Shown piece by piece: positions 11,270 to 51,652 of a stretch of 64,000 nucleotides of DNA; positions within the stretch are counted from its first letter, which is position 1; each line of letters begins with the position of its first letter. Below the pieces are notes generated by a model, which was given only the letters and a program-made list of their open reading frames with translations, was not told the origin of the DNA and did no database searches. The stretch lies in the IMG/VR virus record IMGVR_UViG_3300032309_002614, positions 25,836 through 89,835 of that record, one strand, 5' to 3'. Both the position numbers and the translations under genes were made by a program. The DNA comes from a virus (taxonomy: Duplodnaviria; Caudoviricetes).

Positions 11270-13671
11270 AAAATTTAAATTTAACACCAAGAGCGCAAAA
11301 GCTAATCAAAGAAGCTTATAAAATAGCTGTAGATCTCAAGCATACAGAGATCACGCATCTTCATTTATTTATAAGTTTTTTGAATCTTAAGCAGAGTCAG
11401 ATAGAAGAAGCATTTGGAAATTTTGGCATAGATTCTTTAAAAATAAAAAACAGTGCTATAACATTTTTAAAAATCAACACTACAGCACAAAAGAAAGCGG
11501 TAACTAAACCTTTATTATCTGAAGGCATAAAGACTATTTTTAAATGCGCCAAAACTATATCTTCAAAATTTGATCATAAATATATTGGACTAGAACATGT
11601 ATTTTTAAGTTTATTTGAAGTTCCTAATCAAACTTTTGAACTTTACTTGATTGATTATAATTATGATTTTGTTAAAGTCGTGGACTATGTTGAGCAAAAG
11701 CTAGAAGATGATGATATGTTACCAAGCGTTGAGGAGGAAATAAACAGTCCTAATGAAGCGAAACAAACTTTTGATATAAAGAAGTATAAGGTTTTAAATA
11801 CTTATGCTAATAATCTTAATATACAAGTTGTTAATGGTAAAATAAATAATCTACATCTTAATAAAGAACTGATTCAAAAGATCTCAGAAGTTCTTTGTCG
11901 CAAAAATAAGAATAATCCACTTATTGTAGGCGAAGCTGGTGTTGGTAAAACAGCTTTAGTCGAATCATTAGCGCAAGCCATCGTTAAAGGTGAGGCTTCC
12001 GATCTGCTTAGTCTAAAGCAGATTTATAGCTTGGATATTCCAATGATGATTGCTGGTTGTAAATTTCGTGGTGAATTCGAAGAGAAGATTAAAAACCTTT
12101 TAAAAGAAATCACAGATGATCCATATATTGTTCTGTTTATAGATGAAATCCACACAATCATTGGTGCTGGAAATCCAGAAAATGGCAACGATGTTGCTAA
12201 TATTCTAAAGCCTTATTTAGCTAGAGGAGAAATTAGCTGCATTGGTGCTACTACTTTCGACGAATACAAGAAGACTATATCTGATGACCCAGCTTTATCT
12301 AGGCGTTTTCAGATTATTAAAATCGAAGAACCCACTAAAGAACAAACCTTTAATTTAATCAAGAATATTAAAGGTGGATATGAAAATTTTCATGTCATAG
12401 ATTTTTCTGATGATGTTATTCATTTTATCATTAATAGTGCTGAAAAGTATATTGAAGGAAGATTTCCTGACAAAGCTTTAGATATTATTGATCAAGTAGG
12501 AGCTAAAGTTAAATTAAAGAATTTTATAAAGTCTCCTGAAATGCTTAAAATAGAAAAGAAGCTCAGTAAATTTGTTGATTCTAACAAGCAAATACGAGAT
12601 AAGAAAAAGATTACTTCTTTAGAAGATCTTCTTATCGAGTATGAAGAGTCTACAAAAAAGATGATTGCTAATTGGCGCAATAACAGATATCAAGTTACAA
12701 ATTCAGACATATTAGAAGTCGTCTCTGATAAAACCAATATTCCGGTTAATGATTTAAAATTACAAGACTTTGATAAAGTCAAGTTACTTAAAACCAGACT
12801 AAAAGAACAAGTACTTGGTCAAGACAATCAAATAGAACATATATATAAATGTTTAATAAGAGCGAAAGCTGGTTTTCGAAATCCAAATAAGCCTATTTGT
12901 TCAATGCTTTATGCTGGGCCGACAGGCGTTGGAAAAACAATGACTGCAAAAATAATTGCAGAAACTATATTTATAAATAAGAATAATTTTATAACAATTG
13001 ACATGTCTGAATACACAGACAAGACCGCCGTAAATAAACTAGTTGGATCTAGTCCCGGTTATATTGGATTTGATAAAGGTGGAGTATTAACTGAAAAGGT
13101 AAGAAAGAATCCATATTCTTTAATTCTTTTCGATGAAATTCAAAAAGCCGATCAAGATGTTTTGTACTCTTTGTTACAAATCCTTGAAGAAGGAAAGATA
13201 ACAGACTCTTCTGGAAAGACGGTTGATTTCTCTAACACTATGATTGTTATGACAACTAATATCGGTGCTGAAGTCGTCAATCATTCTGCTATAGGATTTG
13301 GAAAGCAGAAAGCTGGCAAATCTGATGTCCTTTCTTCTATCAAAAAGCATTTTCCACCTGATTTGTTAAACCGTATTGATGAAGTAGTTATTTTTGAGAG
13401 TCTTGAGCAAGAACAAATTAAATTAATCATTGATAAAGAATTACAATTATTTAAAACAGATCTAGCAGATAGAAATGTCAATATTAAATATTCTCCAGAA
13501 ATAACTAACTTTATTTTTGATAAAATACAATTTAATAACTTTGGCGCACGACAAGTTATTAAAACTATTCAACGAGAACTGCAAACACAAGTTGCAGAAA
13601 AAATGCTTGATTCTGATGAAAAATTAAATTTGGAAATTTCAGTTAAAGACAACAATATTTGTGTAATTTAA
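11266..13671 (+). CDS. ClpA/ClpC-family double AAA+ ATPase (Hsp100)
   Basis: Clp N-domain, [40 protein letters not shown] loop. Confidence 0.92.
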
Positions 13672-46411: not shown

Positions 46412-47340
46412 TGAACTACTTCGCTGAACTTGTTGGGCAAGAAGAAGTCAAACGCAAGCTTTCATTTTATTTGGAAGCTCATGATAAGACCGAACTTGTA
46501 CCGTTTTTGAACTTCGTTGGCGCAAAAGGTTTAGGCAAGACTGCATTTGTTCGCGAATTTGCCAAGAATATTTACAATACCACCGGAGTCAATAAGCCAC
46601 TACTTGAGCTAAATAGCTCTAGTATTAAATCGGGGAATCAGTTTTTCGAACAAGTTTTTCTGCCCCATATTCAAGATCAAGAAATTATTTGTTTCTTTGA
46701 TGAAGCGCATTGTCTGCCAAGAGACTTTACTTACGCATTACTTTCTATTCTCTCTACAGAGAAAGATCATGTAATTGATTATAATGCTGGCAAAGCAAAT
46801 TATATCTTCAATTTCAAGAAGCATCATTTTATATTCGCGACAACTGAATCAGATAAGCTATTTATTCCGTTGCGTGATCGATTGACGACGATTGAATTTG
46901 CAGATTATAATACAAACGAATTGAAGGAAATTTTTCAAAAAGCTCTACCAAATATTGAGTTTGATGAAGAAGCGTTGTCAATGTTGTCTGAAACTTCCCG
47001 AGGCAACGCGAGATCTTGTGTGCTTCGCGCCAAAGAAGTCAAGCTTTACGCTGATCGATACGAGATCACGCGATTTACCAAAGAAGACGCTGAGAAGTTG
47101 TTTTATATTCTTGATATTCTTCCTTACGGTTTGAATAGAATTGAGTGGCAGATACTAAATATTTTGCGTAAAGAAGGTAGCTGTACTCTTTCTATGCTCG
47201 CTGCAAAAACTGGTTTGTCAAGAACCGCGATTCAAAGGGATTTTGAATTGTATCTTATTCGTAAAGGGTTTATTAGTATTGATAATGTTAGATATATTAC
47301 GAGTAATGGATGCAAAGTATTAGAAGGTGTGAAGAAATAG
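46411..47340 (+). CDS. ruvB: RuvB-like Holliday junction branch-migration ATPase
   Basis: GQE.VK, GAKGLGKT, FFDEAH, ATTE...L..PLRDR, SRGNAR, E.YLIRKGFI. Confidence 0.85.
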   Translation: MNYFAELVGQEEVKRKLSFYLEAHDKTELVPFLNFVGAKGLGKTAFVREFAKNIYNTTGVNKPLLELNSSSIKSGNQFFEQVFLPHIQDQEIICFFDEAHCLPRDFTYALLSILSTEKDHVIDYNAGKANYIFNFKKHHFIFATTESDKLFIPLRDRLTTIEFADYNTNELKEIFQKALPNIEFDEEALSMLSETSRGNARSCVLRAKEVKLYADRYEITRFTKEDAEKLFYILDILPYGLNRIEWQILNILRKEGSCTLSMLAAKTGLSRTAIQRDFELYLIRKGFISIDNVRYITSNGCKVLEGVKK

Positions 47341-47362
47341 TGTAAGATATTATACATTTGAT

Positions 47363-47437
47363 GCCGGAGTAGCTCAATAGTAGAGCAATACTTTTGTAAA
47401 GTAAAGGTTGCAGGTGCAAATCCTGTCTTCGGCTCCA
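47363..47437 (+). tRNA. tRNA-Thr(UGU)
   Basis: GCCGGAG/CTTCGGC, loop TTTGTAA, GCAGG-TGCAAAT-CCTGT, CCA. Confidence 0.9.
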
Positions 47438-47443
47438 ATTTTT

Positions 47444-47908
47444 ATGAAAAGAAGTTTGTATAAAGATGAAATCTTCAGGTTGAGATCTGAAGGTAAAACA
47501 GGAAATGAAATTTCTAAGCTTCTCAAATGTTCAAGAACATTAGTTTCTTATTACATAGATCTAGGTTATCAAAAAAAACATCAAAATCGATCTAAGACTT
47601 TTAAAAAGACTAATAGATTTGCAAAGAAAGAAGAGATAAGAAACAAGTTTGGCGGCAAATGTCAAATTTGTTCTTATGACAAGTGTCAAAGTGTACTGAG
47701 TTTTCATCATCTTCCCGGTACAGATAAAAAGTTTACTATTTCAGATGCGATAGTAAGAAAAAGAAAATCAGATGAAGAATTAGTGAATGAGTTGAAAAAA
47801 TGTATTTTGGTTTGTGCGAATTGTCACGGTGAGATTCATGCGGGGATCACAGAAATTCCAGAAGGTATCAAGAATCCCTTGACAATCAGTGAAAGTATGG
47901 TAAATTGA
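47444..47908 (+). mobile_element. HTH plus HNH homing endonuclease
   Basis: G.TG.EISK.L.CSRTLVSYY; CQIC...L.FHH; KCILVCANCH.EIH. Confidence 0.85.
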
Positions 47909-47995
47909 TCGTGTTCTTTGGATGCAGCAGGTAGTTGAAGATAGTTTGAAGTTTCTGCTAAGTCCGCTTGACAATCGGTGAAAGTGTGATAGATT
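47879..47995 (+). promoter_or_regulatory. Tandem near-duplicate sigma70 promoters for the stable-RNA cluster
   Basis: TTGACAATCAGTGAAAGTATGGTAAATT (47879) and TTGACAATCGGTGAAAGTGTGATAGATT (47968), each followed by GTTCTTT. Confidence 0.8.
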
Positions 47996-48012
47996 GTCAA
48001 TGTTCTTTAAAT

Positions 48013-48086
48013 GGGATTGAAGCTTTAAAGTGAAGCAATAAACTTTTAATTTATTGAAGAGGGAGCGTTACCCTCCAGTCCTACCA
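48013..48086 (+). tRNA. tRNA-Lys(UUU), atypical D/T loops
   Basis: GGGATTG/CAGTCCT, ATAAA-CTTTTAA-TTTAT, GAGGG-AGCGTTA-CCCTC, CCA. Confidence 0.88.
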
Positions 48087-48108
48087 TTTTTTTTGTTCTT
48101 TATAAGCT

Positions 48109-48333
48109 TTGAGCGGTTGATGATTTATATCTAATGTGTGTTAGATATATTTGAGGAATTATTCCTTCCCGCTCAATTAATTTGAGTAAAGAAGTAGATT
48201 TTATCTTAGAGTGATATAAGATAAATTTCGAAGTAATTGGAATTACACTTTACTCTATTTTTAAGTAAGATAGTAGAAGTTATTATGAATCGCATAATAT
48301 CTTTGAAGGTAATTGGTATTACAATCTTACTTA
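48109..48333 (+). ncRNA. Three tandem ~70-nt three-way-junction RNA units of unknown family
   Basis: Units 48109-48176, 48184-48255, 48262-48333, each with a closing stem and two internal hairpins. Confidence 0.7.
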
Positions 48334-48367
48334 GTTCTTTTAAAATTTAATATGTAGTAGTTTCTGT

Positions 48368-48875
48368 GAGTCATTAGCTCAAGGGTAGAGCAAAAAACTT
48401 AGCGTATACAGCAATGTATACTGGGTCCATATAGTAGAAATATTATATGCGTATGGTGTAAATTCGGTGAACGGCTCGATTTAATAAGTCAACCCAACGC
48501 CGAGCGAAGTTTTAGGCAAACGCTAGAGAAATAATAGAAGAAAGGATTGTGGGTAAATAGGTGCAATAGTGACCTACCATGATTGCTAGGCTACCCGTCT
48601 AGCCACTTAATTGTGATAAATTCTATAGCCTCATAATAAAAAACGTGTAGAGACTATAATCACCTATCTAAATTTGTGTGTAAAGGGTAGTCTCAACTAT
48701 CGGAATAAAATACAAATATGATAAAGGCATAGTCCAGACCACAAACAATGAAATCAGTTGTATATGGTGGTCCTTTAGGCCATTTAAATTATAACTCGTC
48801 AAAAGACCGTTGGTAGTGAAAACTATAGTGGTAAGCATAATTTTTCGGTTATTCGTTCGAATCGAATATGACTCA
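48368..48875 (+). tRNA. tRNA(CAU) (elongator Met or Ile2) interrupted by a group I intron; exons 48368-48399 and 48836-48875
   Basis: GAGTCAT/ATGACTC, GCTC/GAGC D-stem, AAAAA-CT|CATAA-TTTTT, ATTCG-TTCGAAT-CGAAT. Confidence 0.88.
48400..48835 (+). mobile_element. ORF-less group I intron (436 nt)
   Basis: U33 5' splice site with P1 U-G pair, terminal G; P AAATTCGGTGAA(48460), Q AACGCCGAGCGAAG(48496), R GTGTAGAGACTA(48645), S AAAGGCATAGTCC(48723). Confidence 0.9.
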
Positions 48876-48899
48876 CAGAGACTATTATGTATTTTTTAT

Positions 48900-48971
48900 C
48901 GTAGGTGAAGCTGGTAGTCTAGCGCAGTGACTTATAATCGCTGAGTATCGGGGCAGAACCGACATCTACGA
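48900..48971 (+). tRNA. tRNA-Ile(UAU), unusual stem geometry, CCA not encoded
   Basis: CGTAGGTG/CATCTACG, CAGTGA-CTTATAA-TCGCTG, TCGG-GGCAGAA-CCGA. Confidence 0.75.
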
Positions 48972-48972
48972 C

Positions 48973-49047
48973 GGCCCATTCGACTACTGGCTAGGTCATC
49001 AGGTTTTCAACCTGAAGAAGAGAGATCGATACTCTCATGGGCTACCA
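48973..49047 (+). tRNA. tRNA-Glu(UUC)
   Basis: GGCCCAT/ATGGGCT, TCAGG-TTTTCAA-CCTGA, GAGAG-ATCGATA-CTCTC, CCA. Confidence 0.92.
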
Positions 49048-49059
49048 ATTTTTGTTCTT

Positions 49060-49722
49060 TTACAATTTTGAATTTATTATATTTACTATAATATCTAAGT
49101 ATTTTTGAGCTTTGTCAGGTTTGAAATAATTTAAACTAGATGTATCAATAATACATAATTCAATACTCTTCTCTAAGCAAGCTTGAAATTTACGCTGATC
49201 GTTGTTTTTGATTTGATCTAGTTTATTTAAACCATAAATTGGTTCGTAATGAAAAATGCCATTAAGCTCAAAAGCAAGCTTTAATATTGGAATATAAATA
49301 TCTAGTTCAGAGTTAATTGTGTCTTTACGATTAAAATGAAATTCTAAATTTGGATATTTATTTGGTAACGCTTGTTCAAAGTATATTTCCATTTTTGATC
49401 TTCTGCATCCATGAGTCTTATGGGTATTATTATAAGTGGCGGCACAAGAAGACGAACAAAAAGAGTTAGGATGTTTTTTTAATTGATTGCGTGTTTTTAA
49501 AAACGCTTTGTCACATTGTCTGCACGTTACTTCTTTTCTTTTATCTTTCGCTTTAACGCTGCAAGCATTGGAGCAAAAATGATTCTTATAAGAACGTAGT
49601 TTTAGATTAGATTTTATATATTTCTGCATTTTCTCAAAATTTTGTTGGCAATAGTCGCACTTAACAGGTATCATCTGAGTAGCTTTAAAAGATAACATTT
49701 GTTCTATTGAAATTAAAAGCAT
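49060..49722 (-). mobile_element. Zn-ribbon plus Vsr-like/PD-(D/E)xK homing endonuclease
   Basis: CDYC, FCSNAC, CRQC, FCSSSC; ELDIYIP.LKLAFELNGIFHY. Confidence 0.8.
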
Positions 49723-49775
49723 ATAATATAGTATACATGATAGAACTCGAAATGTGAAATTCTAAATTTTTCTCC

Positions 49776-49817
49776 TTGACTGGAGGCATGATCTATAGTA
49801 GATTATGTACGTTCTTT
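49776..49817 (+). promoter_or_regulatory. Sigma70 promoter plus boxA-like element before tRNA-Leu
   Basis: TTGACT-N17-TAGATT then GTTCTTTAAA. Confidence 0.7.
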
Positions 49818-49824
49818 AAATTTT

Positions 49825-49911
49825 GGCACCATGATGTAATTGCTAGCCATAGCAGACTTAAAATCTGCTGGTCGAAAGACCGTGAGGGTTGGAATCCCTC
49901 TGGTGCCACCA
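49825..49911 (+). tRNA. tRNA-Leu(UAA)
   Basis: GGCACCA/TGGTGCC, GCAGA-CTTAAAA-TCTGC, long variable arm, CCA. Confidence 0.93.
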
Positions 49912-49914
49912 CTT

Positions 49915-50245
49915 TTGCAGCAATGAGGGCAGTCGTCACTAAGACGTAGTTTGAGGTACTGGAAATAATCCGGTATATTAGACAACTGAGCGACCTGATC
50001 TGCGAATACATACAGTGCGCCCAAGTGATAATGTTTCTAGTCGCTTTACACTGTGAAAAAAATGGGTATTAATTTTGACCATTAGTGTATAGAATTATAG
50101 CACACTACGCAATAGGAGAGACTGAAGTTGGCGAGACAGACATTTGGAAAAAAAGTACATATATGTTCGAAAGTAAATGTATTGATTTTCCATAATATAT
50201 GGAACAATAGTGAAATCCTCGTATATTCGCAAGTCATGGTCATCC
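49915..50245 (+). ncRNA. Unassigned structured non-coding RNA candidate
   Basis: No sense ORF; long-range stem 49992-50013/50221-50241, pseudoknot, several hairpins. Confidence 0.6.
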
Positions 50246-50263
50246 AGTTCTTTAAATAATTTA

Positions 50264-50325
50264 TCTCATTAGAAGGACAAGGGGCTTCACGCCCCGTTCT
50301 TTAAAAAGACTTACTTCTAGTGGGA
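50264..50325 (+). ncRNA. Small structured RNA element
   Basis: 12-bp TCTCATTAGAAG/CTTCTAGTGGGA enclosing GGGGC-TTCAC-GCCCC. Confidence 0.5.
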
Positions 50326-50386
50326 TTTAATTTTTAAAACTATTGACAATACTATAATAGAGTATAAGATAGTTGTAGATTTTAAC

Positions 50387-50462
50387 GCCCCGATGGTGAA
50401 ATTGGATATCATTTTTCGCTTCTAACGAAAAGTTCCTGAATCGTCCTCAGGTCGGGGTGCCA
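50387..50462 (+). tRNA. tRNA-Arg(UCU)
   Basis: GCCCCGA/TCGGGGT, TTTCG-CTTCTAA-CGAAA, CCTGA-ATCGTCC-TCAGG, CCA; TTGACA promoter at 50343. Confidence 0.9.
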
Positions 50463-50469
50463 ATTTAAT

Positions 50470-50541
50470 TGTAGAGTATCATAACGGTAATGAAATTGCT
50501 TGTTAAGCAATAATATGAAAGTTCGATTCTTTCCTCTACAG
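50470..50541 (+). tRNA. tRNA-Asn(GUU), CCA not encoded
   Basis: TGTAGAG/CTCTACA, ATTGC-TTGTTAA-GCAAT, GAAAG-TTCGATT-CTTTC. Confidence 0.88.
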
Positions 50542-50548
50542 TTTTTAT

Positions 50549-51652
50549 TTATATTTGATAGTCTAAAATTTGTTTCGCTTCGAATTTAGCCCAATATCCT
50601 CTATCGGGCTTAATTATTTTATATTTTTTGCACCATTTAGCTATAGCTACGTCTGAAACTCCAAGTTTTTTAGATAACTGTACAGCCGACATACTCCAAA
50701 CAAGTTCATGCAGTTCAGATTTCGATGGGCGAGCAACTTTTCTTCTCTTAAATCTCATACAAGGCATACAAAGTTTAGCGATTTTAGTTTTTTGCTGGCC
50801 GCACTGACAAAAACTGTAGATTGGATCAATAATTTTTTTCTCTATTTTTTGTGGTTTTTCTTTTTGAATTGAAATTTTCTTTCTATCTTTTATACAGCTT
50901 TTACATTTTATGTTTTGATAGTGTTGAAATTCAATACCGCAGACTGCACAGTTTTTTTTGTTTTTTTCTAACTTGTTCTTTATATACTCCTCATAATTAA
51001 ACTCAATTTTATTCTCTACCGCTGAGATTTGATTTATTAAATTAAGTATATATTCTTCATTGAAACATAGCGAATAATGTATTTCATAAAGCTTATATCC
51101 AAGACATTGTATATAATCATGTCGATCTTGATAATACTTTTTTAATTTACCATCTCTTTCGTAATGTTGATTGCCATTTATTTCAAAACCAATCATTTTT
51201 TCTGGAAAAACGATATCAATTGAATAATTTCGGTCACAATTTGGGGTAAATTCTTCTATAAAATTAAAATTATTTTCGCGCAAAATCTTTTTAAAATTCT
51301 CGCACGGTTCAGATTTAAATTTATCTTTTGATTTCCAAGGGTGTTTATCAGGATTATCGCGCAAAAATTGCTTTCTTTTTTCTGATAAAAGTTTTTTTGT
51401 ATTTTCAGACAGCTTGTTCAAGCCTAAATCACGATAGCATTTTTGGCAATGATTATTGATATTCCTATCGTCTATTGAGATATTACAATTCTGACAATAT
51501 TTAGAAGGCTTTTTATGGCGACTCCATCTTGCTACAGAACTCGCTTTACAAGAACATTTTTGAGAACAATAATGATGTTTTGAAGTAGGTATTCGGTAAT
51601 TTTCTTTTAAAAATTCTTTACTACATAATGAGCAGTTAACTAAAGTTTTCAT
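50549..51652 (-). mobile_element. Zn-ribbon plus Vsr/DUF559-like nuclease plus C-terminal HTH (homing endonuclease-like)
   Basis: CSLC, YCSQKC, YSIDIVF....GFEINGNQHY, S...LSKKLGVSDVAIAKWC. Confidence 0.8.

Follow-up and report, generated by a model that had tools for sequence, protein, structure and literature searches.

That phage tRNA clusters can contain extra stable RNAs has been recognized for about fifty years, the examples being the species 1 and species 2 RNAs of T4. These are encoded by non-tRNA genes, rnaC and rnaD, which follow a tRNA in the phage operon (in the order tRNA-Arg, rnaD, rnaC) within a cluster that also contains the homing endonuclease gene segB. As read from their sequences, rnaD has a CCA end and rnaC a T-arm-like 3' part, and to our knowledge the function of these RNAs is still not known. 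Several other RNAs occur in similar surroundings or share some of these traits. In tmRNA (RF00023), a tRNA-like acceptor end is combined with extra structured RNA containing H-type pseudoknots; its hallmarks further include a T arm, an alanine-identity acceptor stem and a tag ORF with a resume codon. GOLLD and ROOL (500-800 nt), as well as RNase P RNA, are also found near tRNA genes in phage or prophage regions, while YrlA and the 3' external transcribed spacer of E. coli leuZ are tRNA mimics or tRNA-operon by-products freed by tRNA-processing enzymes.

In this report, we analyzed a stretch of 64,000 nt of phage DNA (hereafter the window), which is AT-rich (~33% GC) and comes from a large phage-like genome in which nearly all genes are on one strand and encode, among others, a DnaB-like helicase, a family-A-type DNA polymerase, a Lon-like protease, RIIA and virion proteins. 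When the window was compared with INPHARED phages, only tRNA-Leu was matched and no near relative of the genome was found. A sequence-only reading of the window had proposed that the ~330 nt downstream of tRNA-Leu (49915-50245) form one large, structured and unassigned noncoding RNA. We find instead, with a probability of roughly 0.7, that this stretch consists of two separate structured RNA genes riding in a phage tRNA operon, which we call A and B (with covariance models R1 and R2, respectively).

The T4 RNAs are the closest known counterparts of A and B, which likewise are distal in a tRNA operon, their co-transcription being deduced from this layout. However, A has no tRNA-like part, while B has kept D-like and anticodon-like arms and has its T loop replaced. 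Neither shows similarity to the T4 RNAs, since R1 with filters off gave noise alone in the T4 region (E 1.5 or worse) and R2 had no match there at E up to 1. The order of helix and pseudoknot had been thought to recall tmRNA, a likeness that did not hold up. ARAGORN detected no tmRNA in the window, RF00023 was negative at E up to 10, and there is neither a tag reading frame nor a T arm; B further differs from tmRNA in having A3-U70 instead of G3-U70. B is also a gene distinct from tmRNA because one related phage carries both, its tRNA cluster with B also encoding a full-length tmRNA at a distance of two tRNAs (L166:11623-12008, - strand; RF00023, 102 bits). Unlike GOLLD and ROOL, the two units are only 155 and 171 nt long and have no Rfam match at E up to 10. 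The likeness to YrlA and the leuZ spacer is one of kind, homology to any Rfam family not being detected. No paper describing A or B was found in the literature, where motif strings gave chance matches only. They may be among the more than 10,000 candidates in a catalogue of viral structured RNAs (PMC10690425).

Results

Layout of the tRNA-Leu operon and independent assortment of A and B

In the window, tRNA-Leu(UAA) is followed by ~370 nt without a tRNA call, an intrinsic terminator at 50281-50295, a promoter at 50343, tRNA-Arg and tRNA-Asn. The features framing the two units are listed below.

49060-49722 and 50549-51652, - strand: cysteine-rich ORFs with HNH/homing-endonuclease PHROG matches, on either side of tRNA-Leu/A/B
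49776-49804, + strand: sigma-70-like promoter of the tRNA-Leu operon (TTGACT, 17 nt, TAGATT, then the GTTCTTTAAA motif; consensus scan, 9/12)
49825-49911, + strand: tRNA-Leu(UAA) with encoded CCA (ARAGORN; Rfam tRNA, 48.5 bits)
50246-50254, + strand: AGTTCTTTA spacer motif, recurrent at unit boundaries here and in related clusters
50281-50305, + strand: intrinsic terminator ending the tRNA-Leu/A/B unit (5-bp all-GC stem, T-rich tail; terminator scan)

The promoter block is also found ahead of a Leu-type tRNA in four related loci (L002, L003, L004 and L008), the terminator is kept in these four and in L130, and the element at 49776-49804 is predicted from its sequence to be an active promoter. 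A begins 2 nt past tRNA-Leu and B 8 nt past A, gaps too short to accommodate a promoter. From this spacing, together with the shared and conserved promoter and terminator, we infer that tRNA-Leu, A and B are co-transcribed as one RNA bounded by these two elements. The 9-mer AGTTCTTTA is not enriched in the window as a whole, where it was found 8 times against 4.1 expected, a count reached in 6/100 shuffles. The homing-endonuclease-like genes flanking the operon are consistent with a mosaic, cassette-like exchange among relatives.

All the segments quoted in the sequence-only reading are present where it had placed them, and its view of the stretch as noncoding and structured was borne out. None of the ORFs on the + strand is conserved, the sole candidate being a 43-aa TTG ORF discussed below, and 49912-50310 folds better than shuffled sequences on the + strand (z -3.9, compared with z -1.95 for the - strand). 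In Rfam searches of 49750-50400, nothing but tRNA was found at gathering thresholds, nor when the filters were permissive and E was allowed to reach 10. This RNA in a phage tRNA cluster thus matches no Rfam family, tmRNA, RNase P, GOLLD and ROOL included.

What had to be abandoned is the single large ornate RNA, because A and B assort independently among related phages. We collected related loci from IMG/VR, via the clamp-loader gene just upstream and short DNA patterns, and later from metagenome and genome contigs. In phages with A but not B, A is directly followed by the promoter of tRNA-Arg (L011, L013 and L016), by a tRNA (L049 and L161) or by a terminator (L130). In L037, a different module comes after A, with B only beyond that module. 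Conversely, in L164-L170 and L187, B comes after a tRNA or an unrelated module, and the flanks that were fetched are without A. When loci with one unit alone were searched with R1 and R2, there was no cross-occurrence.

Unit A is a three-way junction followed by a pseudoknot

Unit A (~155 nt, 49913-50067), present in ~45 loci, consists of a three-way-junction domain (A1) followed by an H-type pseudoknot (A2), with the following elements.

49913-50007, + strand: A1, three-way junction (comparative fold and single-sequence MFE)
49913-20 with 50000-07, + strand: A1 closing stem, with a CA bulge
49923-28 with 49994-99, + strand: next helix of A1
49930-33 with 49985-88, + strand: inner helix of A1
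49934-46 and 49949-83, + strand: the two hairpins of A1
50012-50067, + strand: A2, 56-nt H-type pseudoknot
50013-17 with 50049-53, + strand: A2 stem 1
50019-23 with 50063-67, + strand: A2 stem 2
50024-29 with 50040-45, + strand: nested hairpin of A2
50055-62, + strand: A-rich linker of A2

In an alignment of 21 distinct sequences, pairing is kept in 98.6% of the cells of the 48 pairs, 10 of which have undergone compensatory changes, with RNAalifold and a count on the specified structure in agreement. None of 500 shuffles was as good, and controls in which the structure was slid were ~30% paired. Every helix of A1 has at least one compensatory pair, and the MFE structure of the A1 sequence of the window folded alone is the comparative fold (z -3.1). 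The frequent G-U pairs identify the + strand as the RNA strand. Two helices proposed earlier, CGTC/GACG and TACTGG/CCGGTA, are real, belong to A and show compensatory changes. In long forms of A (191 nt), the second A1 hairpin is replaced by a branched domain that is itself covarying. A2 is 56 nt long in 14/14 distinct sequences, and within it only the nested hairpin covaries, one of its pairs being UA, CG, GC or UG depending on the sequence. The pseudoknot that had been proposed, with the stems ACAGTG/CACTG and GCCCA/TGGGY and a linker rich in A, is found in every homolog. Its stems are invariant except for one GC/GU change and, since they do not vary, what speaks for them is conservation and complementarity, with which pairing is consistent.

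A1 and A2 almost always occur together, the exception being L003, which has A2 alone; L036 and L154 have a tandem of long A1, short A1 and A2. A is usually found 3' of tRNA-Leu(UAA), of which there are several versions, either directly or with modules between, and 5' of tRNA-Arg(UCU). As far as searched, the family is confined to one group of uncultured large phages. A scan of genome contigs with the A2 pattern gave 36 matches, 34 of which were due to chance. The two real ones are on short phage-like contigs in bacterial assemblies, a 2.9-kb contig in a Flavobacterium sp. MAG (L203) and an 11.4-kb contig in a gammaproteobacterial assembly (L219). This binning may hint at the host or may be noise, and A was not found in 150 other genomes from the family of the MAG with the A-bearing phage contig. 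R1 gave no matches to tRNAs, which served as a control for the R2 matches described below.

Two other readings of A were tried and rejected. A K-turn or box C-D motif in the CA-bulge region of A1 was dropped, a compensatory GC-to-CG change in L036 and L154 fitting the Watson-Crick register and not that of a K-turn. As for RNase P RNA, which is marked by a CR-I/CR-V P4 helix with a bulged U, a P3 hairpin and a P15 loop that binds CCA, the GAGG-like stretch of A is base-paired, there is no free J3/4 and no P3 hairpin between the stems, the bulged-U P4 is lacking, and Rfam is negative (no RF00010 or RF00011 match).

Unit B is best explained as a derivative of tRNA

The second unit is a tRNA-shaped RNA whose features are as follows.

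50076-50246, + strand: B, tRNA-shaped RNA, 171 nt (comparative alignment and covariance model R2)
50076-82 with 50236-42, + strand: acceptor-like stem, 7 bp
50085-88 with 50100-03, + strand: D-like stem, 4 bp
~50105-50116, + strand: degenerate anticodon-like arm
50120-23 with 50232-35, + strand: T-like stem, enclosing a 108-nt domain instead of a T loop
50145-50199, + strand: variable hairpin region within the insertion (alignments)
50243 and 50244-46, + strand: U73 and CCA

The alignment of B comprises 15 distinct sequences, with 96.8% of the cells paired and 7 compensatory pairs, the changes being in the acceptor-like, anticodon-like and T-like stems. The compensatory events that can be counted as independent are few because most come from one split between two lineages, and the folding of B alone is only modestly better than that of shuffled sequences (z -1.55). 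Elsewhere, B ranges from 122 to 175 nt and falls into three types. These are the window type (~171-175 nt), a type represented by L166, in which the inner hairpin is unrelated, and a minimal type (134 nt, with 122 nt between stem ends), in which it is absent. The region 50145-50199 is accordingly missing in minimal forms and occupied by unrelated sequence in L166. The hairpin TTCCATA/TATGGAA, which minimal forms lack, is not supported. The hairpin TAGTGT/ACACTA is better replaced by the register GUGU/GCAC, which is the D-like stem of B. Some of the B sequences had been collected using a pattern that included the GGTCATCCA end as a requirement, and the independently found variant in L219 has UUUA where the others have UCCA. 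The D-like loop (50089-50099, AUAGAAUUAUA) is, apart from one bulge, the complement of the sequence UAUAUUC in the insert (50221-50227). Both sides are invariant, and their pairing could be an elbow-like tertiary contact.

The best explanation for B is that it derives from a tRNA. Like canonical tRNA (RF00005), it has a 7-bp acceptor stem, the linkers of a cloverleaf, a D-like stem, an anticodon-like arm, a short variable region, and a T stem that stacks on the acceptor, with N73 and CCA at the end. The spacing is that of a cloverleaf throughout, with the acceptor, a 2-nt linker, the D-like stem with its invariant 11-nt loop, a 1-nt linker, the anticodon-like arm, 4-5 nt, and the T-like stem, which is contiguous with the acceptor 3' strand, U and CCA. 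The main difference is that the 7-nt T loop (UUCRANY), which in tRNA makes the elbow together with the D loop, is replaced in all members by a conserved domain of 50-110 nt, and both ARAGORN and the Rfam tRNA model are silent on B. Window-type B also lacks a 7-nt anticodon loop with U33 and a purine at position 37, having a 3-4-bp stem with a 5-6-nt loop, and the L164 type has G33. The sole canonical anticodon loop is that of the L166 type (5-bp stem, 7-nt loop, U33, anticodon UAG and G37). When 46500-51000 was searched using R2 with filters off, the next-best matches after B were genuine tRNAs, led by tRNA-Glu (24.4 bits, E 3.6e-4), and scores were also obtained for a second Rfam-called tRNA, tRNA-Arg, tRNA-Thr and tRNA-Leu. 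tRNA-Glu is aligned from the acceptor 5' strand through CCA, with its 7-nt T loop opposite the 106-position insert. The earlier statement that no tRNA-like domain is evident is therefore wrong for the 3' half of the stretch, genuine tRNAs being aligned end to end by R2. A reading of B as a tRNA with a T-loop intron was rejected. There are no group I features, removal of the insert leaves no sensible T loop, and the insert is conserved.

Alternative readings of the stretch

Four explanations other than a pair of RNA genes were weighed. The degenerate anticodon arm of window-type B, and the location in a mosaic region between homing-endonuclease-like genes, would fit evolutionary debris, B being a tRNA pseudogene in decay that has acquired junk sequence and A a functionless spacer remnant. 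We consider this unlikely. The insertion core and the 3' half of B are nearly invariant across phage groups in which its stems have diverged with compensation. Furthermore, A is almost completely paired, shows its ten compensatory pairs and has elaborated long forms, and both families are found in dozens of contigs from many samples.

That the stretch is one ornate RNA of ~330 nt closed by a helix between 49992-50013 and 50221-50241 is less probable still, even though this helix is not without merit. It is within the MFE structure of the window sequence, the duplex amounts to -19.8 kcal/mol, the whole stretch folds as well as noted above, and the 14-bp core of the helix is possible wherever A and B adjoin. 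Moreover, the modular fold (with the pseudoknot ignored) is only 0.6-5 kcal/mol less stable than the MFE, and the long helix is thermodynamically competitive where the two units adjoin. Comparison nevertheless contradicts the idea that the helix defines a 330-nt unit. Both of its strands are unchanged in the many phages that have A without B or B without A, and in L037 the two units are kept apart by another module. Each strand also has a local partner. The 50221-50241 strand pairs inside B, where it provides the 3' strands of the T-like and acceptor-like stems and shows compensatory changes, and 49992-50013 corresponds to the 3' strands of A1 helices, whose partners within A1 covary. Finally, 12 distinct A-B sequences were compared, and uncompensated changes in the 5' strand were found to shorten the long helix, which in L191 is reduced to -13.1 kcal/mol, while the A1 closing stem is kept. 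The long helix is thus best explained, on this comparative evidence, as a side effect of two independent RNAs adjoining, and it may exist as an alternative conformer in phages with adjacent A and B. More generally, this case shows that the juxtaposition of two independent RNAs can create a long-range helix that is thermodynamically attractive yet artefactual.

We also considered that A, or A2, might be a self-cleaving ribozyme, HDV-like or of a new class, that processes the transcript of the tRNA operon. HDV-like ribozymes form a nested double pseudoknot whose strand order is P1, P2, P3, P1', J4/2, P2', and that of A2 fits it (5' strands of stems 1 and 2, hairpin, 3' strand of stem 1, linker, 3' strand of stem 2). 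In addition, the junction nucleotides of A are very highly conserved, and A often begins 1-2 nt past the CCA of tRNA-Leu. However, no ribozyme family was matched in Rfam at E up to 10, stem 1 has just 5-6 bp where an HDV-like P1 at the cleavage site has 6-7, and A is also found far from tRNA 3' ends, after other modules. The linker that should provide the catalytic C is without any C in L004, L008 and L049, for which the HDV-like reading of A2 was rejected. Overall, a ribozyme appears very improbable. As for a small protein encoded by the 43-aa TTG ORF (50128-50259), which has a possible Shine-Dalgarno sequence (GGAG) ahead and is kept in L004 and L008, it can be dropped as having next to no chance because of the variation between B types inside the ORF, of which relatives lack or replace 50-60 nt (~57 nt being absent from minimal B forms and L166 having unrelated sequence there), and, in addition, GGAG is changed to GAAG in L008 and the ORF overlaps covarying RNA stems.

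Discussion

The locus described here adds two well-supported and widely sampled families to the T4-type stable RNAs, one a junction-plus-pseudoknot RNA of tRNA-Leu operons and the other what appears to be a tRNA with its T loop turned into a large conserved domain. By analogy with the T4 species 1 and 2 RNAs, A and B are most likely cut out by tRNA-processing enzymes, because the promoter and terminator are common to tRNA-Leu, A and B. In such a scheme, the precursor would be processed by the host tRNA-processing enzymes. An acceptor/T-stem stack with NCCA is a minihelix-like substrate for RNase P, and since B has an 11-bp stack of this kind, RNase P would be expected to cut at the 5' end of B, the same cut setting the 3' end of A. 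An endonuclease, together with 3' trimming, would act in the U-rich spacers. The products would be stable small RNAs that work in trans, their likeliest mode of action being to bind or decoy a protein, of the host or the phage, whose normal role is the handling of tRNA. For B, such a protein is the partner that seems most plausible.

A bolder possibility, which we regard as doubtful, is that B is a working tRNA mimic diverting a host factor, while A represents a new catalytic or protein-binding RNA class of the tRNA-Leu operon. B would then be matured by RNase P and by the CCA/aminoacyl machinery, and the domain that has replaced its elbow would trap or divert a host factor acting on tRNA, such as a toxin that serves in defence by attacking the acceptor end or the anticodon loop of tRNAs. 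If this were true, A and B would for the first time open a way to the function of phage stable RNAs, T4 species 1 and 2 among them. Whatever their role, the exchange of A and B as cassettes between phages provides natural presence/absence contrasts for the study of function.

Several other elements were observed in these tRNA clusters. In the window, R2 with filters off gave two further tRNA-like matches, one at 48007-48090 (E 0.017), which is called a tRNA by Rfam but not by ARAGORN, and one at 48104-48183 (E 0.12), which lies within a tandem array and is called by neither. In two related loci (L002:12330-12790 and L008:12905-13290), tRNA-Leu(UAA) is split after U33 by an insert of ~300-400 nt that resembles a group I intron (P1 with a U-G pair), the Rfam intron model scoring below its gathering threshold. 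More structured modules, as yet unassigned, are present between tRNA-Leu and A in L001:13245-13560, L003:13690-13840 and L219:4900-5000. Module X combines a 9-bp hairpin with a stretch resembling GAGGAAA, module Y terminates in the hairpin GUGCAG/CUGCAC, and L001 contains (~13376-13470) a tRNA-like element that has a T arm and whose terminal stem is 11 bp long. Finally, two cassette-like modules, B' and C, can take the place of B after A, each with its own closing stem (AUUCGAUGU/ACAUCGAAU for B' and GUUUGGAGC/GCUCCAAAC for C). Sites with these modules include L002:13195-13350, L037:1535-1700 and the region downstream of A in L028, L148, L155 and L157, and B' and C are often set off from their neighbours by a TTAGTTCTTTT-type motif.
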